A stretch of 64,000 bases of DNA from a virus. This document shows, piece by piece, positions 1 to 23,500 of this stretch; position 1 is the stretch's first letter; the number at the start of each line of letters is the position of its first letter. A model generated the notes under the pieces. It searched no databases. It was not told the origin of the DNA and worked only from the letters and a program-made list of their open reading frames with translations. Position numbers and translations under genes: made by a program. The DNA lies in IMG/VR virus record IMGVR_UViG_3300047160_018755, positions 118,280 through 182,279 of that record; one strand, written 5' to 3'.

Positions 1-985
1 CGCAGTGCGGGCAGGCATCTTCCGACTTCGCCATCGCTTGCTTGATGACGTCGGGCTCGTCGTCCATCGGAGGACCATCGCCCATCACTTCCTTGCCGAG
101 GAGCACGACGCCCTGGACGAGGCCGATGATGGCCGCGTACGCATCGGGAGCGTACTGCTGGAGACGCTGGATGTCGGGCAGCTGCTTGCGGATGTTCGTG
201 AGCGCGTCCGTGACCTTCTTCTTGACGGACTCGGTCTGCTTCTGACCGTCGCCCGCAGCCTGCTCGTCCTGCTTGCTGGAGTCCTCGGCCGCGTCATGGA
301 GCTGCGACTCCATGTCCTGGTTCATGTTCTCCATGTCGCCCGCGGCGTGAGTCATCTCGGGCGAGGCCGGCTTGGGATCGTCACCCAGAACATCGCCCAC
401 ATGCTTCATGTCGGTGAAGCCCGGGTCGTGCTGGACAGCGAAGCCCGCGTTGGGACCGGAGAGCTTCGCCGTGTTGTGCTCCAGGACTTTCTGCGTGTCC
501 TTGCCGCCGGCCGCCTTGTGCTCTGGCGGCTTGGGCGTGTCGGCCTTGGCGAGGTACTCGTCCGTCAGCTTCTCCTGCTCGGACTTGGGGGCGTCGACCG
601 CGCGCTGGTACTCGGCCGCCATCGCGTCTTGGTCCCACACCAAAATCTGGTTGCCGCCGCGGAGCTTTGCGACCACGAGGGCCTTGGCGGAGTCGGACAT
701 CTGCATGCCCACGCCCACGGAGACGGTGGCGCCCACCAGGTTCGAGTACTGCTTCGCGATCGAGGGCATGTCGGCCAGCTTGCTGGCGTCGACCACGATG
801 CGACCCTCGTCGCCACCCATCTCGATCACCGAGCCGCCGTTGTTCACGGCGAAGCTCTTCCACAGCTCGTTGCCGGCGTTGATGGCCTGGTCGACTCGAC
901 GAACCTCACCCACGTCGTTCGCGAGCACTGCTCGCCCGACGCGGCGGCCGATCTTGTCGCCGTCCCAGCAAACGAAAACGTCCAT
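1..985 (-). CDS. mCpol (minimal CRISPR polymerase, GGDEF-like palm) domain protein with C-terminal inner-head-like region; runs off the window edge
   Basis: Hand translation from ATG 985 is open to base 1: MDVFVCWDGDKIGRRVGRAVLAND...EMGGDEGRIVV...ATVSVGVG...AKALVVAKLRGGNQILVWD. This fits the mCpol pattern (DGDxIG, GGDE, TVSVGxG, AKxxGxN). LAKA at 542-553, MAKS at 23-34. Absent from the ORF track. Confidence 0.75.
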   Translation of the reverse strand, partial: MDVFVCWDGDKIGRRVGRAVLANDVGEVRRVDQAINAGNELWKSFAVNNGGSVIEMGGDEGRIVVDASKLADMPSIAKQYSNLVGATVSVGVGMQMSDSAKALVVAKLRGGNQILVWDQDAMAAEYQRAVDAPKSEQEKLTDEYLAKADTPKPPEHKAAGGKDTQKVLEHNTAKLSGPNAGFAVQHDPGFTDMKHVGDVLGDDPKPASPEMTHAAGDMENMNQDMESQLHDAAEDSSKQDEQAAGDGQKQTESVKKKVTDALTNIRKQLPDIQRLQQYAPDAYAAIIGLVQGVVLLGKEVMGDGPPMDDEPDVIKQAMAKSEDACPHC

Positions 986-991
986 GTCCCT

Positions 992-998
992 AAGATTA
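992..998 (-). promoter_or_regulatory. late-type promoter motif TAATCTT
   Basis: TAATCT lies exactly 7 nt before ATG 985 and overlaps the stop codon of the upstream gene. Confidence 0.6.
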
Positions 999-1382
999 CG
1001 CCCGGTAGTGCTTGCAGGCCGTATTGCTGCACTCGATGGTTCGGAAGAGAATGAAGGCGTTTCCCCCACAAACGAGGCACGTGTGCGGGTACCTGGACGA
1101 CTTCTGCTTCTGCTCTTCGTCCACCAAGATCGCAGCCACGCAGGTGTAGTGCCACGTCCCTTGACGGAAGCCCGCGGTCATGGTAAGGTGATGGGCTTGA
1201 GGATCGACAGTGTAGGTCGGCTTCCAGGCGCACTCGATGACGATCTGGGCCATGTCGTAGTAGTAGCCGACCACCCGTCCAAGCTTCTTCTCCCCGCCAG
1301 GCTCCTCCCGGAACCACACGACGTACCCCGCCATCTTGTCGGCACGGTTGCGCGCGAAGTTCTTGAAGTCGATCGACGGCAC
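996..1382 (-). CDS. hypothetical protein with C-terminal CxxC...CxxxxC zinc ribbon
   Basis: GTG at 1382, 7 nt after GAATCT; the longer ORF-track start overlaps the dNMP kinase gene antisense. Confidence 0.6.
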   Translation of the reverse strand: MPSIDFKNFARNRADKMAGYVVWFREEPGGEKKLGRVVGYYYDMAQIVIECAWKPTYTVDPQAHHLTMTAGFRQGTWHYTCVAAILVDEEQKQKSSRYPHTCLVCGGNAFILFRTIECSNTACKHYRA

Positions 1383-1400
1383 TCTTAATAGATTCCTGCT

Positions 1401-1412
1401 GATTCGATAGAA
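1401..1412 (+). promoter_or_regulatory. GATTCGATAGAA motif (phage middle-type promoter candidate)
   Basis: Exact copy, intergenic, upstream of the dNMP kinase/ligase operon. Confidence 0.7.
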
Positions 1413-1431
1413 ATGGCCCGGAGGGATTACC

Positions 1432-2205
1432 ATGGGTTCAACACCGATTTTGATCGTCAGTGGCAAGGCCGGTTCGGGCAAAGACACGGTCGCCGCGTTC
1501 ATCGCGGAGAAGTACAACGGCGTCTGCATCGCGCAGGCAGATCCGATGAAACGCCTGGCTGGAGCGCTCTTCGGGTTCACCGAGACCCAGCTCTGGGGAC
1601 CGAGCGAATGCCGGAACGCGGCCACCAAGTGCACCCCCGTCAACCCCGACGCCATGGACACCGTCCAGCTCGCTCGGGACTTCTGCGAGGAGATGGGGCT
1701 CGGCAACGGATGGGAGGCGCGCAAGCTGCTCGACTGGTACGAGGGCCAGTTCGCCGAGTACCTGAAGAACGATGTTATCGCGCCGCGGACCGTGCTCCAG
1801 ACCATGGGCACCGAATGGGGCCGCGAGATCAAGCCGTCGATGTGGATCGAGAAGGCCGTCGGAAACGCCCGCAAGCTGGTCGAGGGTGGTTTCGGCTACG
1901 CCCGCGGCGTCGGGCTGCGGCACGACAAGGACAAGTCCTTCGACTACGCCATCATCACGGACGGCCGGTTCCGGAACGAGATGCTGGCCGTGCGCTTCCT
2001 GGGCGGCGCGGCGCTGCGCGTCATCCGCCCCTCCAAGGCGGCTCAGACCGTGGGCATCGCAGGCCACCGGAGCGAGAAGGAGCTTGACACGATCCCCGAA
2101 CACTTCTACAGTGGGACCATCATGAACGACTCCACCTTCGACGAGCTGTACGAGCGCGTCATGGACGAGATGGAGTTCCACTACTTCGACACCCGCGCAC
2201 GGTAA
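1432..2205 (+). CDS. deoxynucleoside monophosphate kinase (T4 gp1-like)
   Basis: P-loop GKAGSGKDT, ADPMK, R..LQTMGTEWGR, IITDGRFRNE; GGAGG RBS. Confidence 0.85.
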   Translation: MGSTPILIVSGKAGSGKDTVAAFIAEKYNGVCIAQADPMKRLAGALFGFTETQLWGPSECRNAATKCTPVNPDAMDTVQLARDFCEEMGLGNGWEARKLLDWYEGQFAEYLKNDVIAPRTVLQTMGTEWGREIKPSMWIEKAVGNARKLVEGGFGYARGVGLRHDKDKSFDYAIITDGRFRNEMLAVRFLGGAALRVIRPSKAAQTVGIAGHRSEKELDTIPEHFYSGTIMNDSTFDELYERVMDEMEFHYFDTRAR

Positions 2206-2209
2206 ACCC

Positions 2210-3385
2210 ATGAAAAACTTCCCCACACTGTACCAGAAGACCAACGCCGGGGCGATCCAGCAATGGACCATCTCGGTCGAGGGCACGACCATCAAGACCG
2301 TGCACGGCCAGGTGGGAGGCAAGCTCCAGGAGGCCCTCGACACCATCAAGGAGGGCAAGAACATCGGGCAGTCGAACGAGACGACGCCCGAGATGCAGGC
2401 CGAGCGCGAGGCGAAGGCGAAGTGGACGAAACAGCTCAAGAAGGGCTACGTCGACACGATCGCCGCCGCTGAGGCCGGCGAGGTCGACGCCATCATCGAG
2501 GGCGGCCTCCCGCCCATGCTGTCGCCGAACAAGTCGCACCCCAAGGACGACCTGCTCGCCAAGACCGCGAAGTTCCCGGCCTACGGCCAGCCGAAGCTGG
2601 ACGGCATGCGCTGCATCGCCATCATCGAGGGCGGCAACGCCACCGTCTGGAGCCGCACGCGCAAGCGCATCCCCACGATCCCGCACATCGTCGATGCTCT
2701 CGCCAAGATGTTCCCGACCGAGCAGCGTGTTGTGCTCGACGGCGAGCTGTACAACCACCAGTACAAGGACCACTTCGAGGATCTGATGTCGATCCTACGC
2801 GGCGACGGGCCGGACCCCGAGGGCGAGTACCTCAACGCCCAGTTCCACGTCTACGACTGTCCCGAGCGCTTCGTGCGGGCGTCGCAGCACACGCAGGACG
2901 CGCCGTTCGAGCACCGCAACCGTGCCGTCAGCGCGATGCTCGGCGGCCTCGACCCCCAGTCGCCCATCAAGCGCGTCGAGACGGTCGCCGTCGAGACCAT
3001 GCAGCAGCTGCTCCTGTTCTACGAGGAGTGTCTGACCCGCGGCTACGAGGGCTCGATGTACCGCTCTCCCGAGGGCAAATACGAGGCCGACAAGCGCTCG
3101 AAGTTCCTGCTCAAGATGAAGGAGTTCATCGACCAGGAGTTCCCGATCGTCGGCGCCAACACCGGCCGCGGGAAGGACGCGGACGTGGTGACCACCTTCG
3201 ACGTGCAGCTCCCGAACGGCAAGGTCATGCCGGTGCGCTCGCCAGGGACCTACGCCAAGAAGCGCGAGTTTCTGAAGAAGCCCCAGCTGTGGCAGGGGAA
3301 GCAGCTCACCGTGAACTTCAAGCGGTGGACCGCCGACGGGATGCTCTACATCCCGACCGGGAAGGGGATCCGAGACTACGAGTAA
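2210..3385 (+). CDS. ATP-dependent DNA ligase
   Basis: Motif I QPKLDGMRC, LDGELY, FHVYD, YEGSMYR, KRSKFLLKMKE, OB-fold tail. Confidence 0.9.
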   Translation: MKNFPTLYQKTNAGAIQQWTISVEGTTIKTVHGQVGGKLQEALDTIKEGKNIGQSNETTPEMQAEREAKAKWTKQLKKGYVDTIAAAEAGEVDAIIEGGLPPMLSPNKSHPKDDLLAKTAKFPAYGQPKLDGMRCIAIIEGGNATVWSRTRKRIPTIPHIVDALAKMFPTEQRVVLDGELYNHQYKDHFEDLMSILRGDGPDPEGEYLNAQFHVYDCPERFVRASQHTQDAPFEHRNRAVSAMLGGLDPQSPIKRVETVAVETMQQLLLFYEECLTRGYEGSMYRSPEGKYEADKRSKFLLKMKEFIDQEFPIVGANTGRGKDADVVTTFDVQLPNGKVMPVRSPGTYAKKREFLKKPQLWQGKQLTVNFKRWTADGMLYIPTGKGIRDYE

Positions 3386-3399
3386 CCAAGGAGGCCTGC

Positions 3400-4113
3400 T
3401 TGAGTCCAGAGCTAATCGTTTTCGCATGCGTTCTGCGTACACTCGAAGTGGGCCCGCCAGCTGACGCACGCTGCCAGACACCGTTCATCCAGGAAGTCGT
3501 CACCGCCATCCAGAAGTACTCGCCCGAGACCAAGGTCCCCGCTCACATCGAGGCGGCCTTGATCTGGCACGAGTCGCGCTTCAAGAAGACCGCCCGCGGG
3601 ACCCGCGGCGAGGTGGGGCTCACGCAGCTACTTCGCCACGGCGCCGTGCAGGGTGCCGATCTGAAGCTCACGCGCAAGCAGCTGGAGGACGTCGACACCA
3701 ACGTCCGCATCGGCATGCAGTACTTGGGGACCTTCGTTCCCCAGTGCTCGACCGCGAGCCGCTGGCTAACCAAGTACAATCGGCCGGCGACGGGCTGCAA
3801 GTCGTCGCGCTACAGCCGGGGGATCCTCACGGATCTAGGTATGGCGCGAAGGGCAGGCCGACGATTGTTTGGGTCGTCGTTGGCAGAGGCATCGCCGGGT
3901 TCGTCACCACTTCCGTATACGTCCACGTGGCGATTAGATTGGGCGGCGCCTGACCACACTTCTCGCACGGAGGAGGATTCAGACCGTTCCACACCGCCGG
4001 ATAGCGATGAGCTGCGCCATCCAGCGGGCACACGTCAGGGAACGTCCACACCGTCGGGACCGATACCGGCCCCCACTGAAACACAGCTGGCGGCTCCTTT
4101 CCAAGAGCCCTAA
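3400..4113 (+). CDS. lytic transglycosylase (SLT/goose-lysozyme-like)
   Basis: ALIWHESRF (catalytic Glu), GEVGLTQL, NVRIGMQYL; AAGGAGG RBS before TTG 3400. The last ~95 aa overlap an antisense gene. Confidence 0.7.
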   Translation: MSPELIVFACVLRTLEVGPPADARCQTPFIQEVVTAIQKYSPETKVPAHIEAALIWHESRFKKTARGTRGEVGLTQLLRHGAVQGADLKLTRKQLEDVDTNVRIGMQYLGTFVPQCSTASRWLTKYNRPATGCKSSRYSRGILTDLGMARRAGRRLFGSSLAEASPGSSPLPYTSTWRLDWAAPDHTSRTEEDSDRSTPPDSDELRHPAGTRQGTSTPSGPIPAPTETQLAAPFQEP

Positions 4114-5657: not shown

Positions 5658-5664
5658 AAGATTA
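5658..5664 (-). promoter_or_regulatory. late-type motif TAATCTT
   Basis: Overlaps the stop of 5662-6489, directly before the next gene. Confidence 0.5.
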
Positions 5665-6807: not shown

Positions 6808-6814
6808 AAGATTA
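6808..6814 (-). promoter_or_regulatory. late-type motif TAATCTT within the palindrome CCCTAA-TCT-TTAGGG
   Basis: Hexamer 7 nt before ATG 6801; back-to-back with a sigma70 promoter. Confidence 0.6.
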
Positions 6815-8110: not shown

Positions 8111-8117
8111 AAGATTA
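8111..8117 (-). promoter_or_regulatory. late-type motif TAATCTT
   Basis: Overlaps the stop of 8115-11282, upstream of the lipoprotein gene. Confidence 0.5.
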
Positions 8118-11100
8118 GGTCGTTACCCACAACGAGTTGATGATCAAATCGAGGGGCTCGTTGCCGAGGCGGACAGACACCTTCTGCAAGCGATCCATCG
8201 TGGGAATCGTGTTGATTCCGTAGCGCTGGCAGATGAGGCGCACGTCACCCGGAACGATTTTCCCAAACCAAGTCTTCAGCTCCTCAGCAACAGACGCCGG
8301 CACCCGCGGCAACGACTTGAGCTTCGTTGCGGTGTCGAGCTGGTGGAAGTTCTCGTCGAGGCACCACGCGCGCAGGTAGTACGGCACGAACGAGTTGCCG
8401 TCGTGGCCAGGATCGAAGCTCGGGCCGGCGAAGGCCGAGCCGTGATCGATGAGCTGCACGTCACCCTTCGGGTCGACCATCACGTTCTGGCCGTGCGAGT
8501 CCGGGTTGCCGAGGATGTAGTCGATCACGGCCCACTTGTGGACCAGACCCTCGTGCAGGTACTTGTGCAGGACGCTGCGAGCAGTGCCCGGCTCCTTGCG
8601 CTCCATCTCGTCGAGCGTCTTGAAGTCGAGAGCGAGCAGGTGGAGCGCGGAGTACATCTTATCGTCGATGATGACAAGCTCCGCGCGCGGGTACCACTTG
8701 CCGATCTCCCACTGCTTCGCGATGTGGTAGAACGCGGCCTCGCGAGCGTTGGGGTTCGACGGGTCCTCCTTCGAGCCTGCGGCTCCGCCAGCTCCACCGC
8801 TGCCGGACTTGAGCAACAGCGTCGTCTTCGTCTGCTCATCGTAGGCGATGAACGATCCCTTCGAGTGCTTGCCGCCGAGCGCGACCGGGAACACGAAGTG
8901 CGTCTTGAACGCACGCTCGATCATTCGCGCCACATCCTCACCCTCAAGATGCGCGGTCACGACCTTCGAAGCGGTCGGCGTCGGCTCCATGATCGGATCC
9001 GACTTCGTCAGCCCGCAGATGGCGTGCAGGGCCTTCAGGTTCTCTTCGCTGCACGGCAGGCCGTACGCCTGGAGCGCAGCACGATCCACGTCACCATCCT
9101 CGAAGTAGAGGGCCTGGCGCATCGACTCGTCCGAGATGAGCGCTCCGTTGGCGAGGAACTTGGCTGCCTTGAATGCGCGGTGGTTCGCCGGCTCGAAGCC
9201 GAGCTGCATGGTCACGATCGGATGCTTCGCCACGCCCTCCATCGGAGCCGAGGCGGCCGGGGTGAGCAGATCGAGTGCCTTCGAGAGCATCTTCTGGAGG
9301 TGCTGCGGGCCGAAGGCGGGGTTCGACATCACGCCGGCACGAAGGAGCGTGTCCGGGTGCAGGGCGTGGGTCGCCTCGTCAGCCAGCGTCGGAGACACGC
9401 TCTTGTTGCGCAGGAGCGCCCCGATGAGGCCCGGCGCGGCCGAGGTCGGCAGCAGCTGGGCCTTGGGGAGCAGGTCCTTGAAGATCTCGGCCAGAGCCGG
9501 CGTCGACAGACCTTGGTTTGACTCCAAGGCGCGCTCCGCGAGCGCCACCACGTGGGGCTCGCCGCGGTCGGCAGCGCGCTGGACGAGGGCCCGGAGGGAG
9601 CCGTAGGGCAGCTCCAGGTGCTCCACAGCGCGCGAGCCGAGGTCTCCTGACCCGCCGCCAGGGACCGTCAGGGCCGTCTTCAGGGCGTGATCCAAGACAT
9701 CCGCGGCGGCCCTCTTGTGGCTCAGAATCGCGATTCGCGAATCGTGGACGACATCCGGGTCCATGTACATGGAGCGAAGGAGCCCTTCGGGCGCCTCTGG
9801 ATGAGCCGCGATCTGGGCGACGGTCGCCGCGTAGCAGGCGGGGCCGCACATGCGCGCGGCGCGCGCGAGCGCGGTGAAGTGGTAGGGCTGGAGCTTCCCG
9901 GGCTGGCCCAGGAAGAAGTCCTTCTGGGCCTGCGGGTAGGCGCCGTTCTTGCCGACCACCGCCTCCATCAAGCTCAGCGACTGGGAGGGCCCGAAGAGCG
10001 GGTGGTTGATGGCGGCCTGGTAGATGGACGGGTCAGGATCGAGGGCGGCCTGGAAGAGGTGCTCGGGACGGACCGTGTCGAGCTTGAGGGCCATGCCGCG
10101 CTCGATCGGGTCCGGGTTGTCAAGCATGCGGAAGACCTCGTCCTCCGCCTTCGCAAGATGCGGCAGATGGGTACCGACCATGGCGGCCTGGTCGACATGC
10201 TCGCTGGGCAGCTCGTATGCGTCGAGCTTGCCGCCACCCTCGGCCTTCGCCGCGTGGTACTTGTGGTTGCCGTCGACGACCTCGTAGAGCCCCGTCGAGT
10301 TCCGCTTCACTACGAGGGGTGGGAGTTTCCCCTCCTTGCGGTACATCTTGCGGTAGAGGTCGTAGCGGGACTTGTTCTTGACGTCGTTCTTCGGGACGAG
10401 CTTGTCGGTCGTCACCGTGATCGGCTTGATGGTCGGGCCGTAGTGGTCCTTCAACGCGGACACGTAGCCGGCGTCGTAGTTGGGGCGGTCCGGGTGCTGG
10501 ATCGAGGGGATGGAAATGCGGCTCGTGCCCCAGTCGTCCGAGTGCCAGACCTTGGGCTCCTTCTTTTCGAGCGTGTCCCAGTCCTCGGACTTCTGGACCT
10601 TGAAGATCTGGCGCAGGAGGTTCGTCGAATCCTTCGGGCCATGGAGGTGGTTGTAGACCTTCGGCGGAAGGCCTTCCTCGACGTCGATCCACTCCCACTC
10701 AGAGACCTCGTCATCGGGATCGTTCTTCGGATGCGGAGAGCCGGACACGTACGCGCTGAAGCAGTACGCCTCGGTGCCGTCGGGGAGCGTGTAGTTCTTG
10801 AGGTGCGACAGGCTCACCGCATGTAGCCCCGTCTCCTCGTACAGCTCGCGGGTCGCGCACTGCTCGGGAGACTCGCCCTCCTCGAAGTGGCCGGCGGGGA
10901 GCGTGTAGAAGTCGTTGTCGTTGCGCTTGCCGACGAGCAGCTGCCCCTCGCCGTTGTAGCAGGTGATGATCGCGACGCGATTGGCGTGGTTGCGGAACTT
11001 GTTCTCCAGCTCCTTCGCCTCGTCGTGTGCCTGCTCGTACTGCTCGTGCTTGTCGTGCATGAGGTGCGCTTCGCGGCACTCGTGCAGAGCAACGAGCGGG

Positions 11101-11282
11101 ATCTCATCTCGCGGCGTGTTGTTGTCGATCCAGATCTGGCCCTGCGGAATCCACTTGTAGCGCTCCGGGTTGCCGCCTTGGACGAAGTCCGAGTCGTGCT
11201 CGTTGCGGATGACCTCTCCGTCGACGAGAAAGATCTTCAGCCCGTGAGGACAGGCTCCGATGGGTTGCTTGCGGACATCCAT
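8115..11282 (-). CDS. multidomain (polyvalent) putative virion protein: HExxE peptidase-like + NUDIX + ParB/Srx + HEAT repeats + PI3/4K/HipA-like kinase
   Basis: ALHECREAHLM; NUDIX box GHFEEGESPEQCATRELYEETGL; LPPLVV..YEVVDGNHKY; LLLKSG, AREAAFY, GNPDSHGQN, LIDHG. Confidence 0.75.
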   Translation of the reverse strand: MDVRKQPIGACPHGLKIFLVDGEVIRNEHDSDFVQGGNPERYKWIPQGQIWIDNNTPRDEIPLVALHECREAHLMHDKHEQYEQAHDEAKELENKFRNHANRVAIITCYNGEGQLLVGKRNDNDFYTLPAGHFEEGESPEQCATRELYEETGLHAVSLSHLKNYTLPDGTEAYCFSAYVSGSPHPKNDPDDEVSEWEWIDVEEGLPPKVYNHLHGPKDSTNLLRQIFKVQKSEDWDTLEKKEPKVWHSDDWGTSRISIPSIQHPDRPNYDAGYVSALKDHYGPTIKPITVTTDKLVPKNDVKNKSRYDLYRKMYRKEGKLPPLVVKRNSTGLYEVVDGNHKYHAAKAEGGGKLDAYELPSEHVDQAAMVGTHLPHLAKAEDEVFRMLDNPDPIERGMALKLDTVRPEHLFQAALDPDPSIYQAAINHPLFGPSQSLSLMEAVVGKNGAYPQAQKDFFLGQPGKLQPYHFTALARAARMCGPACYAATVAQIAAHPEAPEGLLRSMYMDPDVVHDSRIAILSHKRAAADVLDHALKTALTVPGGGSGDLGSRAVEHLELPYGSLRALVQRAADRGEPHVVALAERALESNQGLSTPALAEIFKDLLPKAQLLPTSAAPGLIGALLRNKSVSPTLADEATHALHPDTLLRAGVMSNPAFGPQHLQKMLSKALDLLTPAASAPMEGVAKHPIVTMQLGFEPANHRAFKAAKFLANGALISDESMRQALYFEDGDVDRAALQAYGLPCSEENLKALHAICGLTKSDPIMEPTPTASKVVTAHLEGEDVARMIERAFKTHFVFPVALGGKHSKGSFIAYDEQTKTTLLLKSGSGGAGGAAGSKEDPSNPNAREAAFYHIAKQWEIGKWYPRAELVIIDDKMYSALHLLALDFKTLDEMERKEPGTARSVLHKYLHEGLVHKWAVIDYILGNPDSHGQNVMVDPKGDVQLIDHGSAFAGPSFDPGHDGNSFVPYYLRAWCLDENFHQLDTATKLKSLPRVPASVAEELKTWFGKIVPGDVRLICQRYGINTIPTMDRLQKVSVRLGNEPLDLIINSLWVTT

Positions 11283-15710: not shown

Positions 15711-15717
15711 ACCCCAT

Positions 15718-15729
15718 TTCTATCGAATC
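15718..15729 (-). promoter_or_regulatory. GATTCGATAGAA motif
   Basis: Exact reverse-complement copy between the capsid terminator and the thyX operon. Confidence 0.7.
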
Positions 15730-18848: not shown

Positions 18849-19235
18849 ATGCCTAACCTGTACGTCTGCTCGGGTTGCAAAAACCCTAAGCCTCGCGGGG
18901 AGTTCCACGAGGCTCATTACACGGACCGCAAGCGCGTCGTGACCTCCCGTTGCCGCGAGTGCCGATCCGAGGACTACTTCACCGACCGTTACGAAACGGT
19001 GTGCGGGCAGTGCCGGCGCCATCGACCGCTGAACCAGAACCGCGTGTGCAAGAAGTGCAACGAGGACTCCGGCCTGCGCGAGTGCCGCGGGGCGTGCGGA
19101 TCGCTCCTACCGGCGCTGCTGTCGTTCGACGGCAAGCGCACGACGTGCAAGTCGTGCCGGAAGCTTAGGCAGCTGCCTTCGGCGTCTTCGGCGGCTTCGG
19201 CAGCGCAGTCGCGACGGTCGGCGATGCCGGCGTAA
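18849..19235 (+). CDS. tandem zinc-finger protein with no recognisable nuclease domain
   Basis: Six CxxC/CxxxC pairs; repeats resemble the N-terminal finger of the endonuclease at 12727. Confidence 0.6.
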   Translation: MPNLYVCSGCKNPKPRGEFHEAHYTDRKRVVTSRCRECRSEDYFTDRYETVCGQCRRHRPLNQNRVCKKCNEDSGLRECRGACGSLLPALLSFDGKRTTCKSCRKLRQLPSASSAASAAQSRRSAMPA

Positions 19236-22200
19236 CGGTCTGGTGGACCGCGTGCTGGCCAGCATCGTGGATCGGCAGCGGACCTTCATGACCCGGCATC
19301 AGTGAGTGGGCGAGGTTCGGCACCTGGCCGACCTTGTACTGGCGCTTGTCGCCCATGATGCCGAGCTTCTTGCCCATCTGGCGCATCGCTGAGGGCTGCG
19401 CGACCTTCTGCTCCTTCGCCTTGTAGAGCGCGAGGTCGGCGGACGCGGGGTCCGGGCCGAAGCCGAAGGACATGCTCATCTTGTGCTGGCCGCCGAGAGG
19501 GGCGAGCGAGTTGAGCTTGTCGCTCAGCGCACGGTGGAACTGCGCCGCGTGCTCGTGGCTCGGGACGTGCGCGATGAATTCGTCGCCGCCGTTGCGCCAG
19601 AGCTTGCCGTTCTCCTTGCCCACGGTCTCGTCCATCGCCTCACGAGCGGCGTTGCCGAAGGCCTTGATGGCGGAGTCGCCGCCCGCGTGGCCGAACTTCT
19701 CGTTGATCGCGCGGAAGTCGTTGCCGTCCATCTGAATGTACGCGCCGGTCTTGCCGCCCGGGTTCTGCTTCAGGTGGTCGGTGAACGCGAGCTTGTTGCC
19801 GAGCCCCGGAACCATGGGGTCCGAGAAGAAGTGCTTCGTGGCGATGTCGCCCGAGCCCTTCGGCATGGCGCCACGAGCTTCCGCATCGCGGATGTGGCGC
19901 ACCAGCTCGTGCGGCTCCATCTCCGCCGGATCCGCCTTCATGAGCGACTCGAACGCGGCCTCCGCCTTCATGACGGAGTCGAACTGGCTCTTCTGCTTCG
20001 CCTTGTACGAGATCTTGGCGGCACCGGACTTGTGGTTTTCGAGGATCTTCTGCACCTCGGGCTGCGACAGCTTCTCGCCATCGAGCAGGTAGTGCCCGTC
20101 CTTCACTTCGAGGGTGTGCGGCTTGTCGTGGCCGGCACGCTTGTACTCGAAGACCGACGGCGGACGCGGGAGACGTGCGTTGTTCTGCATCTTCTCCGGG
20201 TGCGCGTGCTCGCGGAACTTGTCGTTCTGACCGTCCATCGTCTCGACCTCGACACGGACGTGTGGAGACATCTTGAGTCCGTGCAGCTTCGTCAGGCCCT
20301 GGATGGTGAGCGGTCCCTCAGGCAGAGTCGCCCCGATGAGGCCGTGGTAGTCTTCGAGGTGGTGAACCTGGCCCTGGTGCAGGACGAAGCGGCCCGCGAG
20401 GTGCTCGGTGTTGCCGTGGTCCTTGTCCTTGAAGAACACGGAGTGCACAGTCGGCACGTTCGGGTCCGAAATCTTGGCGACCTGCATGTCGTGGACGTTC
20501 TTGCGCAGCTGGATGCCGAGGTTCTCGATCTGCATCGACTTCGCGAAGTCCGACAGGTCGTCGTGCTTCTCGCGGTACTCGGCCATCTCGTAGAGGTGTG
20601 GGACGATGTGCTGGTAGTACATCATCATCGCCGGGATCTCGCCGAACTCCTGCTGGTACGCGAGGAAGAGCGCGACGAGCTTGCCCATCATGTGCTCGTC
20701 CGGCTCCTTGTCGGAGAACGCGTTCTTCTTGAGCTGGGGCGCCTCGCTGCCGAACACGCGCTCCATCTGCTTCCACATGGCCGAGTGCGTGCTCAGCTCG
20801 TTCTGCGAGGCGGTCGTGTCGATGCCGCGGGCCTTCTCGTCACGGGGGATGGTCGCCCAGTGCAACCAGAAGCCCGGACCAACAGCGTCCTCGTTGTCCT
20901 TGAAGTGCTTGCCCGCCACCGGGTCCTGCGCGATCGAGCGCGGCGCCGGGTGGTTCTTGGCGTACCAGCGATCCATCGCCTCCAGGATGTGGTGGTTGCC
21001 GGCGCGCCACAGGCCTGTCTTCAGGTACTGGAGCGTGCGACCGTCGGTCGCGTTGTCCATCCCGAACATGTGGCGGATGTAGTGCGTGTCGTGCACGGCG
21101 GCGTTCGAGCCACCGGTCAACAGAAAGGCGTATCGTCCCGTCTTCGGGGCCAGCCCGGGGACAGGAGTGCCCTCGTACTTCGGGAACTTCTCGTGCAGAG
21201 CACGGTTCACGAAGGGAGAGAGCTTGTCTTGGAGGCCGGCGTCCGTCGCCTCCTGCTTGAACTTCGCGCGGTACCAGCGCTTGCCCGTCAGGCGCGAGGC
21301 GGAGTACTTCGCGATGCTGGGGTGCTCTTTGTACTCGTCCGGGTTGAAGTCGGTGTCGTCGTTGCCCGTGAGCATGCGCGGATCGAAGGGAAGCGGCGCA
21401 TCGTCATCGTCGTCAGCGCCCGGCTCACGCTCGGCCGGAGCCTGACCCTTCTTCGTGAACTTGCCAGCAGCGTTCGCCTCGTTCATCTTCTGGTCGACGT
21501 AGTTCTTGTGGTCGTCGGTCAGACCCGCGGCAGCCGCCTGCGCCTTCAGCTTCTTGCGGAAGGCGTTGCGCTGGTTCTTCCACTGGATCTCCTTCACCTT
21601 GTGCTGCATCAGCTCCGCAGTGGCGGCGCGTGCATCGGTGCCGTGCTTCTGGATCAGCTCCATCATCGTCGGGTGGAGCTTGTGGTACTGGGCGATGTTG
21701 TCGAACTTGTTGTTCGCCAGCATGAAGGACTTCACGTCACCGACCTTGCGGCGACCGCCTTTCTCGCTGTCGCTGCTCAGGAAGTTGCCCTTGTCGTTGG
21801 CATACTCCTCGGTGTCGTTCTTCGGGAGGTTGTTCGCCTTGTCGCGAGCCTTCCAGTCCTTGCGGAGCTTGCGAAACTCAGGGTCCGCCGGGTCGAGGCC
21901 ATGCTCCTGCCAGCTGTCGTAGAGGTGGCCCTCCATCAGCTGCTGGACGGAGACCGGCGTGTTCGGCGACATGGCCGACATGAGGTACGCGATCTTGACG
22001 ATGTCCGGCGGAAGCGTCTTCGCTTCGAGATTTTGCTTGTTGCGGACGAATCCAGGCAGAACCTTGCTGCGGATGAACTCCTTGATCTCGGGAGTCTCCA
22101 ACATCTTCGCGAATTCGGGGTTCGGACCGTTGTGCGGGATCTGATTCATGTCCGCACCTGGCGCCACGTGCAAAACGCCGTTGTGGTAGAAGGGCGAGAG

Positions 22201-23478
22201 CTTCGCGAGCGGGTGAGTCTTCTGCTCGAAGCCCGTGTCGGGGTTGTACATCGGGAAAGAGCCCTTGCGCGTGTGCAAGATGCCCTTTTGCTCGTCGAAC
22301 ACCCACTTGTTGGTCTTCACCTTCGGCGCAGCGACCGGAACGCCTCGAATCGAGGCCACGGCGAGCTTCACCGGGTTGTCATCGGGCTCCTCGGGCTTCG
22401 CAACCTTCGGCGCAGCGACCTTGCCGGTCTTTTTCGGAGTTTTTGCCGGTTTCGGAGCCGCGGAAACGGGCTTGGGCGCTGCCTTTTTCGGCGTCGCGGC
22501 CGGTTTCTTGCCGATCTTGGCTGCCGGTGTGGCCGAAGGCTCCTTTTTCGCGAGGTGCTGCTTCTTGACGTGGTAGTCCTCGACCACATCCGTGAAGTGA
22601 TCGATGAAATCGTCGCTCGCCTCGGGCATCAGCGTCTTCGCGAAGCCGCGGAACTCGCTGCGGTTGAAGACCTCCATGTAGCCGCCCTCGGAGAGCTTCT
22701 GGATCAGGTCTCCGGTCGTCCACTTCTTCGCCTTGCCGGGCTTCTTCGGGCCGAGATCTTCCTTCTGGAGAGCCGCGCCGCCTTCGAGAGCACTCGGGGC
22801 GGCCGAAGCGGTGCCCGCGGCGAGCGCCTTGCTCAGGTCGTCGACCATCGGGTCTCCGACCGTGCCCCACGAGCTGCCGAGGCGCTGGAACATCGGATCG
22901 GTCTCACTCTTCTCGGCGTCGGAGAAGTCGAGGAGGTCACGCACCTTCGTCTTGACGTGCTTCTTCTCGAATCCCTCGGGCGCGTTCGGATCTTCGATGA
23001 GTCCCGACACCGCCGTGCGGTTGCAGGGCTTCACGGTGACGGCCACGCGACGCACGACGGACTCCGCGAGGCGGTTGTCCTCCTTCTTGAGCGTCGCACC
23101 TTCGACCGAGTAGCGGCAGACGATGGGCTCGTTGTTCGCGGCGTGATCGCGGATGATGGCGGCGATGCGCTTCGCCTCTTCGTGGCCGGCGCCGTCATAC
23201 AGACGGCAGACGCCGTAGATGTACGGAAGTTTGATCTCGTCCCAGTAGCGCCGCTGGCGGTCGTTTTCGCAGTCGTCGCGCTTGTAGATCTTCTTCGCCT
23301 TGAGGACGATGCCGACCAGGGTGGTCGCGCTCTTGTCACCGGGGGTGTGCTCCCAGTTCAGAAGACAGGTGCCCTTCTCGACATCGGAAATGTCAGCGCC
23401 CGCGACGTCGAGGACTTCGCCCGAGGAATCGATGGCCTCGGAACCGAGGACACCGTCAATCATCATGCCGGTTGACAC
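19165..23478 (-). CDS. prohead protease fused to an HhH-GPD glycosylase-like domain and a C-terminal GGDEF diguanylate cyclase
   Basis: N-terminal DSSGEVL, LNWEH, YSVEG, TVKPCN (HK97-type protease); VPGLAPKTG...HDTHYIRH at 21061-21162; SDPMVPGLGNK, MDGNDFRAINEKFGHAGGD, RNGGDEF (19576-19590), SFG, ADLALYKAK. Confidence 0.8.
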   Translation of the reverse strand: MSTGMMIDGVLGSEAIDSSGEVLDVAGADISDVEKGTCLLNWEHTPGDKSATTLVGIVLKAKKIYKRDDCENDRQRRYWDEIKLPYIYGVCRLYDGAGHEEAKRIAAIIRDHAANNEPIVCRYSVEGATLKKEDNRLAESVVRRVAVTVKPCNRTAVSGLIEDPNAPEGFEKKHVKTKVRDLLDFSDAEKSETDPMFQRLGSSWGTVGDPMVDDLSKALAAGTASAAPSALEGGAALQKEDLGPKKPGKAKKWTTGDLIQKLSEGGYMEVFNRSEFRGFAKTLMPEASDDFIDHFTDVVEDYHVKKQHLAKKEPSATPAAKIGKKPAATPKKAAPKPVSAAPKPAKTPKKTGKVAAPKVAKPEEPDDNPVKLAVASIRGVPVAAPKVKTNKWVFDEQKGILHTRKGSFPMYNPDTGFEQKTHPLAKLSPFYHNGVLHVAPGADMNQIPHNGPNPEFAKMLETPEIKEFIRSKVLPGFVRNKQNLEAKTLPPDIVKIAYLMSAMSPNTPVSVQQLMEGHLYDSWQEHGLDPADPEFRKLRKDWKARDKANNLPKNDTEEYANDKGNFLSSDSEKGGRRKVGDVKSFMLANNKFDNIAQYHKLHPTMMELIQKHGTDARAATAELMQHKVKEIQWKNQRNAFRKKLKAQAAAAGLTDDHKNYVDQKMNEANAAGKFTKKGQAPAEREPGADDDDDAPLPFDPRMLTGNDDTDFNPDEYKEHPSIAKYSASRLTGKRWYRAKFKQEATDAGLQDKLSPFVNRALHEKFPKYEGTPVPGLAPKTGRYAFLLTGGSNAAVHDTHYIRHMFGMDNATDGRTLQYLKTGLWRAGNHHILEAMDRWYAKNHPAPRSIAQDPVAGKHFKDNEDAVGPGFWLHWATIPRDEKARGIDTTASQNELSTHSAMWKQMERVFGSEAPQLKKNAFSDKEPDEHMMGKLVALFLAYQQEFGEIPAMMMYYQHIVPHLYEMAEYREKHDDLSDFAKSMQIENLGIQLRKNVHDMQVAKISDPNVPTVHSVFFKDKDHGNTEHLAGRFVLHQGQVHHLEDYHGLIGATLPEGPLTIQGLTKLHGLKMSPHVRVEVETMDGQNDKFREHAHPEKMQNNARLPRPPSVFEYKRAGHDKPHTLEVKDGHYLLDGEKLSQPEVQKILENHKSGAAKISYKAKQKSQFDSVMKAEAAFESLMKADPAEMEPHELVRHIRDAEARGAMPKGSGDIATKHFFSDPMVPGLGNKLAFTDHLKQNPGGKTGAYIQMDGNDFRAINEKFGHAGGDSAIKAFGNAAREAMDETVGKENGKLWRNGGDEFIAHVPSHEHAAQFHRALSDKLNSLAPLGGQHKMSMSFGFGPDPASADLALYKAKEQKVAQPSAMRQMGKKLGIMGDKRQYKVGQVPNLAHSLMPGHEGPLPIHDAGQHAVHQTVTPASPTVATALPKPPKTPKAAA

Positions 23479-23500
23479 CCCCAGAAGATTGTGGTAGCCT
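23472..23500 (+). promoter_or_regulatory. host sigma70-type promoter TTGACA-N17-TAGCCT (extended TG)
   Basis: Perfect -35 and 17 nt spacer; ATG 23509 lies 8 nt downstream; the spacer contains the opposite-strand late motif. Confidence 0.7.
23485..23491 (-). promoter_or_regulatory. late-type motif CAATCTT for the protease polyprotein
   Basis: CAATCT 7 nt before GTG 23478. Confidence 0.6.

Follow-up and report, generated by a model that had tools for sequence, protein, structure and literature searches.

The window, as we call the whole 64,000-nt stretch of DNA analysed here, spans bases 118,280-182,279 of a virus record (genome G000) that is complete at 182,279 bp and carries direct terminal repeats; the virus is a soil phage of 182 kb and a relative of Myxococcus phage Mx1. 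At the left end of the window, a minus-strand open reading frame begins at an ATG at position 985 and crosses the window's edge; read on the whole genome, it encodes a protein of 424 aa (P0002; L002:13991-15265, minus strand), of which aa 1-328 lie inside the window (1..985, minus strand) and the last 96 codons plus the stop lie to its left (L002:13991-14280, minus strand). The initial annotation had pointed out that the ORF track misses this gene, and it does so because the gene is open-ended at the window edge. A GTG at position 1069 was ruled out as the start codon in favor of ATG 985, since the first residues are M-x-V-F in every homologue and the stop of the upstream gene lies at 996-998. 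That upstream gene (996..1334, minus strand) encodes a small Cys-rich protein of about 112 aa, opens the minus-strand run and is restricted to the closest relatives. No in-frame slippery heptamer was found in the 424-aa gene, and no alternative frame runs past its stop.

The first 118 residues of the protein (632..985, minus strand) form an mCpol (Cas10-palm-like) domain, which belongs to the mCpol family by all sequence and fold tests. Such a domain had been proposed from its motifs in the initial annotation, which suggested an HMM search and structure prediction as checks, and both of these bear it out. The Pfam profile PF18182 (mCpol) matched residues 5-115 (E = 2e-13 to 1e-12; 49-51 bits against a cut-off of 26.4) across profile positions 2-112 of 114, that is, over the whole domain, and the Pfam search reported no match of the protein to PF00990 (GGDEF). 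The sole solved relatives found in PDB by sequence were the Panoptes OptS/mCpol proteins 9nwn and 9mnr (E = 0.002, full domain). An AF2 model built with 24 homologues had pLDDT above 90 at residues 1-135 and superposed on Panoptes OptS (best TM 0.89, rmsd 1.6 Å). When PDB was searched with Foldseek, the six top matches were all OptS/mCpol chains (TMt 0.80-0.89, rmsd 1.6-2.3 Å), with GGDEF (TMt about 0.5) and class III cyclases ranked well below them.

The motifs on which the proposal was based are all in place on the minus strand: WDGDKIG, with catalytic D8/D10 (aa 7-13, window 947-967); GGDEG, with catalytic D59/E60 (aa 57-61, window 803-817); TVSVGVG (aa 87-93, window 707-727); AKLRGGN (aa 106-112, window 650-670) and, past the domain, LAKA (aa 145-148, window 542-553). 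With its active site intact, the domain is apparently working and is predicted to be a cyclase. D8 and D59 align with D6 and D57 of the ECOR31/Kp mCpol, and in bacterial ECOR31 mCpol the substitution D57A abolishes c-di-AMP synthesis (PMC12657230). D59 and D8 are kept in 98/100 and 90/93 homologues, respectively, and DGD plus GGDE in about 88/100; among further cluster representatives, 115 of 120 have DGD and about 116 of 120 have GGDE. The domain is also the best-conserved part of the protein (mean pairwise identity 63% versus 26-50% elsewhere), with dN/dS of 0.24-0.42, although dS is uncertain in this G+C-rich genome. The retention of motifs and the conservation of the domain suggest that the active site is under selection.

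Beyond the mCpol domain, the remainder of this protein (hereafter the carrier) was divided by alignment and the AF2 model, with all in-window coordinates on the minus strand. Two conserved helices (aa 119-147; 545..631) end in a near-invariant E..K[IL].DEYL.KA junction, and a DEYL-like motif occurs in 82/120 further representatives. DEYL.K was considered as a maturation site and rejected, since it recurs in no other predicted protein of the genome. The helices are followed by a poorly conserved linker (aa 148-221; 323..544; pLDDT below 50, mean pairwise identity 27%), a conserved helical region with the pattern FE..LH ... QLP.I.QLQ..PDAY.AI..LVQGV (aa 222-301; 83..322), a variable region that includes the start of a zinc ribbon (1..82) and, outside the window, a conserved C-terminal beta-hairpin with an HPVSSREP tail (aa 367-424). 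The C-terminal motif W..V.SG.V...HP[VI]SSR[EN]P was found in 63/120 further representatives and is retained in short proteins as well as in those of 675-1016 aa. Inserts in relatives are placed between the helical region and the C-terminal tail, and the extra enzyme domains of relatives (GNAT, ParB-N and DUF5661) are in the variable linker; the carrier studied here has a single enzyme domain. Its 31-aa zinc ribbon (CP.C...PHKDGS.TC.GC; aa 320-350, L002:14216-14308, minus strand) is also found near the N-terminus of a 706-aa protein encoded further left (aa 29-59, L002:9969-10061, minus strand; 55% identity to that of the carrier), and we regard it as a small mobile insert because only carriers of the closest relatives possess it. 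Outside the mCpol domain, where the initial annotation had seen an inner-head-like tail, the carrier matched no PHROG, Pfam family or solved structure (MuF and portal families of Pfam included) and resembled no known head, neck, collar, whisker or ejection protein. A search of the ESM Atlas with residues 215-424 gave a best score of 0.76 and no lead, the AF2 model of the C-terminal half had a mean pLDDT of 59 and a pTM of 0.30 and was of too low quality to be used in fold comparison, and a BFVD search with the full model returned one uncharacterised phage relative followed by phage GGDEF proteins, which did not name the carrier.

Searching 5.8 billion proteins yielded 100 relatives, all metagenomic, on contigs of up to 201 kb; mCpol is N-terminal in nearly all of them, and GNAT, ParB-N or DUF5661 is added in many. 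A profile of the domain searched against 1.84 billion cluster representatives matched at least 483 clusters (defined at 50% identity) at E ≤ 1e-30 and 1084 at E ≤ 1e-10. The best 150 profile matches range from 135 to about 1300 aa and are mostly several hundred residues long, and in most of these the domain is N-terminal or nearly so. In a set of 185,579 species genomes there was one matching contig, a phage contig within a MAG that has the same gene order. The mCpol-carrier family is viral and almost absent from this set. The phylum of the MAG holding this phage contig comprises 131 genomes with two mCpol hits, which is uninformative on the host of the phage studied here. Two soil metagenome runs contain at least half of the sampled words, which fits a soil host without naming one; no RNA runs were present among the listed sequencing runs holding sampled words.

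The carrier gene lies in the virion block of a complete phage genome, in agreement with its initial description as phage-encoded. On the minus strand, the block runs from the portal through a 1437-aa prohead protease polyprotein-GGDEF fusion, the major head protein, thymidylate synthase, an adaptor-like 282-aa protein, a 1055-aa NUDIX plus ParB-N protein and a 275-aa virion protein to proteins of 331 and 158 aa. Plus-strand genes for a dNMP kinase, a ligase and an SLT transglycosylase come before the minus-strand Cys-rich and mCpol-carrier genes. To the left of the carrier gene are an HNH endonuclease, proteins of 300 aa, 331 aa (with a weak tail-terminator-like match) and 207 aa (DUF3293), a second HNH endonuclease, the 706-aa protein and the tail sheath. 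Sequence searches of PDB with the 331-aa, 300-aa and 275-aa neighbours gave no match. The core order of 275-aa protein, 331-aa protein, mCpol carrier, 300-aa protein, 331-aa protein and sheath was recovered by tblastn in 35/38 IMG/VR loci, as well as in Mx1 and in the MAG contig, and it holds at 26-30% identity and from 40 to 63% G+C. In the head-to-tail block of Mx1-like myophages, the mCpol-carrier gene has a fixed place.

Several other genes in and around this block are worth describing. The conserved block is broken by the two free-standing HNH endonuclease genes (L002:13532-13966 and L002:10129-10701, both minus strand). The first starts eight codons past the mCpol-carrier stop in the same frame and has homologues at the same place in loci L007 and L018; the shared frame looks like chance because the homologue in L007 is in another frame. 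Between the 300-aa and 331-aa genes, a 107-aa gene without a family match lies on the opposite strand (L002:12373-12696, plus strand), with its place and orientation conserved in about 15 related loci. The 207-aa protein of the tail block (L002:10715-11338, minus strand) matches DUF3293 at 28.6 bits against a cut-off of 25 and has a weak S-adenosylmethionine lyase match. The SLT lytic transglycosylase (window 3385-4113, plus strand; 42 bits) follows the DNA ligase and has a low-complexity tail. Among the head genes, the 1055-aa protein (window 8115-11282, minus strand) combines a NUDIX domain (74 bits) with a weak ParB N-terminal match and a weak PI3/PI4-kinase-like stretch, and looks like a polyvalent cargo-type protein. 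The 1437-aa protein (window 19165-23478, minus strand) is prohead-protease-like at its N-terminus and carries, at aa 1225-1357, a canonical GGDEF domain (PF00990, 37.5 bits; cut-off 23.8), in which GGDEF and DxD-type motifs are present; the matching region of Mx1 is annotated as three features, namely genes for a prohead protease, a nucleotide cyclase and a hypothetical protein.

A late promoter had also been claimed for the carrier gene, and this claim stands in part. No sigma-70-like site was detected in window positions 1-2000, and the strong motif GATTCGATAGAAA (1403..1415, plus strand) faces the dNMP kinase gene, away from the carrier gene. What remains is the sequence TAATCTT (992..998, minus strand), located 13 nt before the carrier ATG, the TAA of which doubles as the upstream gene's stop codon. 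It belongs to a clade-conserved motif, [CT]AATCTT, that is shared with virion genes. The genome holds 38 copies, compared with about 6 per control 7-mer of the same composition; 31/38 lie on the minus strand, and 22 are followed at 7-45 nt by a real-looking gene start, the spacing most often being 13 nt. The motif precedes the mCpol-carrier, sheath, protease-GGDEF, 331-aa and other virion genes (example sites on the minus strand are window 992-998, 5658-5664, 6808-6814 and 23485-23491). It often appears as GGCAATCTT, and in the virion module start codons usually follow it at 13-28 nt. In relatives, which span 40-63% G+C, it was found close upstream of the mCpol-carrier gene in 13/17 loci, low-G+C ones included, and in Mx1 it occurs 8:1 on the gene strand, with six copies 13-36 nt before annotated starts. 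[CT]AATCTT is a candidate late promoter or start signal, and a spacer of 6 nt before the ATG would be consistent with a -10-like element that yields transcripts with a short leader or none. The genome also holds 27 copies of a second motif, GATTCGATAGAA[AG] (e.g., window 1403-1415, plus strand, and 15715-15727, minus strand). Most of them lie 10-40 nt ahead of the start codons in other genes, the dNMP kinase gene among them, and the motif probably marks a different promoter class.

Enzyme domains on proteins encoded among virion genes have a precedent in the polyvalent proteins of phages, for which Iyer et al. (2017) described GGDEF, GNAT and ParB domains in a virion context (PMC5512222). Like these, the carrier places a nucleotide-cyclase palm on a multidomain protein among virion genes, and in its relatives the scaffold bears further modules, GNAT and ParB-N among them; the virion gene context is shared, with extra enzyme domains in relatives and one enzyme domain here. 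It differs in that the survey has GGDEF rather than mCpol, and in that the carrier is not a MuF, portal or other anchor named there. Within the same genome, the head module encodes another palm-type cyclase, the prohead protease-GGDEF fusion, whose gene has the same upstream motif, although this is a canonical GGDEF on a protease polyprotein and so represents another family on another carrier.

Our preferred reading, to which we assign a probability of roughly one half, is that the protein is a core member of the head-to-tail morphogenesis block in Mx1-like myophages and bears mCpol as a particle-borne writer tampering with host nucleotide signalling. The domain would dimerise like Panoptes mCpol and cyclise NTPs into a cyclic di- or oligonucleotide. 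By analogy with polyvalent proteins and with the protease-GGDEF fusion, the conserved carrier may take the enzyme into or onto the assembling particle; the enzyme would thus be present late in infection and perhaps be delivered with the DNA, and its nucleotide product might tamper with host nucleotide signalling or immunity. The carrier would also perform a role that is independent of catalysis. This reading draws on the identity and fold of the domain, the apparent selection on its active site, the fixed place in the virion block, the shared upstream motif and two cargo-enzyme precedents in the genome itself (the protease-GGDEF fusion and the nearby NUDIX plus ParB-N protein). Against it stand the lack of a match between the carrier and known head, neck or ejection proteins, the low confidence (pLDDT 59) of the modelled C-terminal fold, the loss of catalytic motifs in two members of the family (below), and the receptor and esterase partners that were looked for and not found.

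Mx1 is the only cultured relative, and its ortholog (WNM70340.1, from OR576727.2) is annotated as a hypothetical protein; it is recognised as the ortholog from its syntenic position together with its helical and C-terminal regions, at 27-30% identity. Where the carrier studied here keeps both catalytic motifs, the Mx1 protein has WSIDHLE for WDGDKIG and LDLGAVG for EMGGDEG (DGD to SID and GGDE to LGAV), and its Pfam mCpol score of 21 bits is below the cut-off. The catalytic motifs are likewise lost in a metagenomic member, P0093. Catalysis thus appears to be dispensable in some lineages and, because the Mx1 copy retains the rest of the protein without its catalytic motifs, the carrier is likely to have a catalysis-independent role. 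These degenerate motifs also make Mx1 unfit for testing the enzyme. It is possible, although unlikely, that the protein serves chiefly in the structure or assembly of the neck region, with mCpol as an accessory whose catalysis is optional or phage-internal (for example, in the timing of late events). The persistence of the protein in Mx1 and P0093 agrees with this, as do its fixed syntenic position immediately ahead of the 300-aa gene, the 331-aa gene and the sheath, and the upkeep of the helical region and C-terminal motif in proteins as long as 675-1016 aa. However, catalytic motifs in about 90-95% of the family, in the most conserved domain of the protein, are hard to explain without catalysis, and the carrier has no likeness to known neck, collar or whisker proteins.

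A further alternative is that the enzyme acts in the cytoplasm late in infection and is never packaged, making its nucleotide during assembly, for instance to block host effectors or superinfecting phages. We consider this rather improbable. The upstream motif, common to late-type virion genes, would suit it, and incorporation into the particle is argued here from analogy; yet the C-terminal anchor, the strict place among morphogenesis genes and the swapping of domains are typical of virion-context polyvalent proteins (PMC5512222).

Our literature search found mCpol studied only as the bacterial half of Panoptes, with no phage-encoded mCpol described. The phage domain shares with Panoptes OptS/mCpol (KpOptS 9mnr and 9pd0; ECOR31 9nwn) the single-palm fold (TM 0.84-0.89), the catalytic aspartates, the domain length, the SxGxG strand and the K.RG motif. 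However, Panoptes mCpol stands alone as a protein of about 120 aa, encoded in bacteria by an operon of two genes whose other member is a 2TM-beta or CARF-TM effector, whereas the phage domain is the N-terminus of a 424-aa protein in a virion gene block, with no effector found. It also has GGDEG in place of the AADG of OptS, and D/N rather than S/N as the base-selecting pair. Panoptes operons pair mCpol with an S-2TM-beta (OptE/Cap15-like) or CARF-TM effector, and no 2TM, CARF or SAVED partner was found among the neighbouring genes read on both sides, in agreement with the initial annotation, which had seen no such effector on the in-window side and had asked for the genes to the left, where no cognate effector lies either. 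Across the whole genome, neither PF18153 nor PF18145 (Cap15/S-2TM-beta receptor, SAVED) was matched, a weak blank given that control genomes were also silent, and the 2H esterase PF13563 had no match. PADLOC, applied to 126 predicted proteins (the first half of the proteome), was uninformative because redundant GajB/UvrD models swamped its list. Panoptes is, moreover, a cell-encoded guard that often lies beside CBASS, and this gene is on a complete 182-kb phage genome. Because the effector, SAVED, Cap15-type receptor and 2H esterase were not found, the locus is neither a Panoptes system nor, in our view, a carried defence cassette.

The two groups also differ at the base-selecting positions. 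In ECOR31 mCpol, adenine is selected by S30 and N34 (PMC12657230), which align with D32 and N36 of the phage domain (gap-free sequence alignment, about 24% identity). The pairs found at these positions in the phage family are D-N, S-D and S-E, one of the two residues being nearly always acidic, and the Panoptes pair S-N is rare (2/100 and 7/120). With residues unlike those of Panoptes mCpol at these two positions, the phage enzyme may also differ in its substrate or product, which we offer as a lead and not as a prediction. This bears on the anti-Panoptes or decoy role put forward in the initial annotation. Panoptes is released upon loss of its mCpol product (PMC12657218, PMC12657230, PMC13577387), and a phage enzyme that restocked 2',3'-c-di-AMP or cA3 could keep the effector silent while phage sponges or nucleases act. 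The idea is possible, its support being homology, in that the closest solved relatives are the Panoptes proteins themselves. The different residues at the adenine-selecting positions, the blank for a 2H esterase and the degenerate Mx1 copy all argue against it, and the late timing suggested by the upstream motif suits it only if the protein is injected, such that we judge it very unlikely. That the gene forms a defence or superinfection-exclusion cassette with a cognate effector is scarcely credible: although bacterial mCpol genes normally adjoin an effector (PMC12657218), the neighbours here are HNH endonucleases, structural proteins, a dNMP kinase and a ligase, the receptor families are blank genome-wide (with the control genomes equally silent), and the family is fixed in the virion block across 35 loci.

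Returning to the particle-borne reading, a broader version would have Mx1-like phages load ready-made second-messenger writers (the mCpol carrier and the GGDEF-protease) and inject them together with the DNA, so that host cyclic-nucleotide pools would be rewritten from the very start of infection. We put this forward tentatively and judge it unlikely; if true, particle-borne writers would be the counterpart to known phage sponges and nucleases. The 147-residue domain, the naturally catalytic-dead Mx1 ortholog (for locating the carrier) and the candidate late regulatory motif provide test material. The phage mCpol clade, with at least 483 clusters, may prefer another base than bacterial Panoptes mCpol. 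A Panoptes fold with a kept active site is a fixed gene of the particle block in a large viral clade and, if the enzyme is active, phages would also make immune nucleotides, beyond mopping them up or cutting them.
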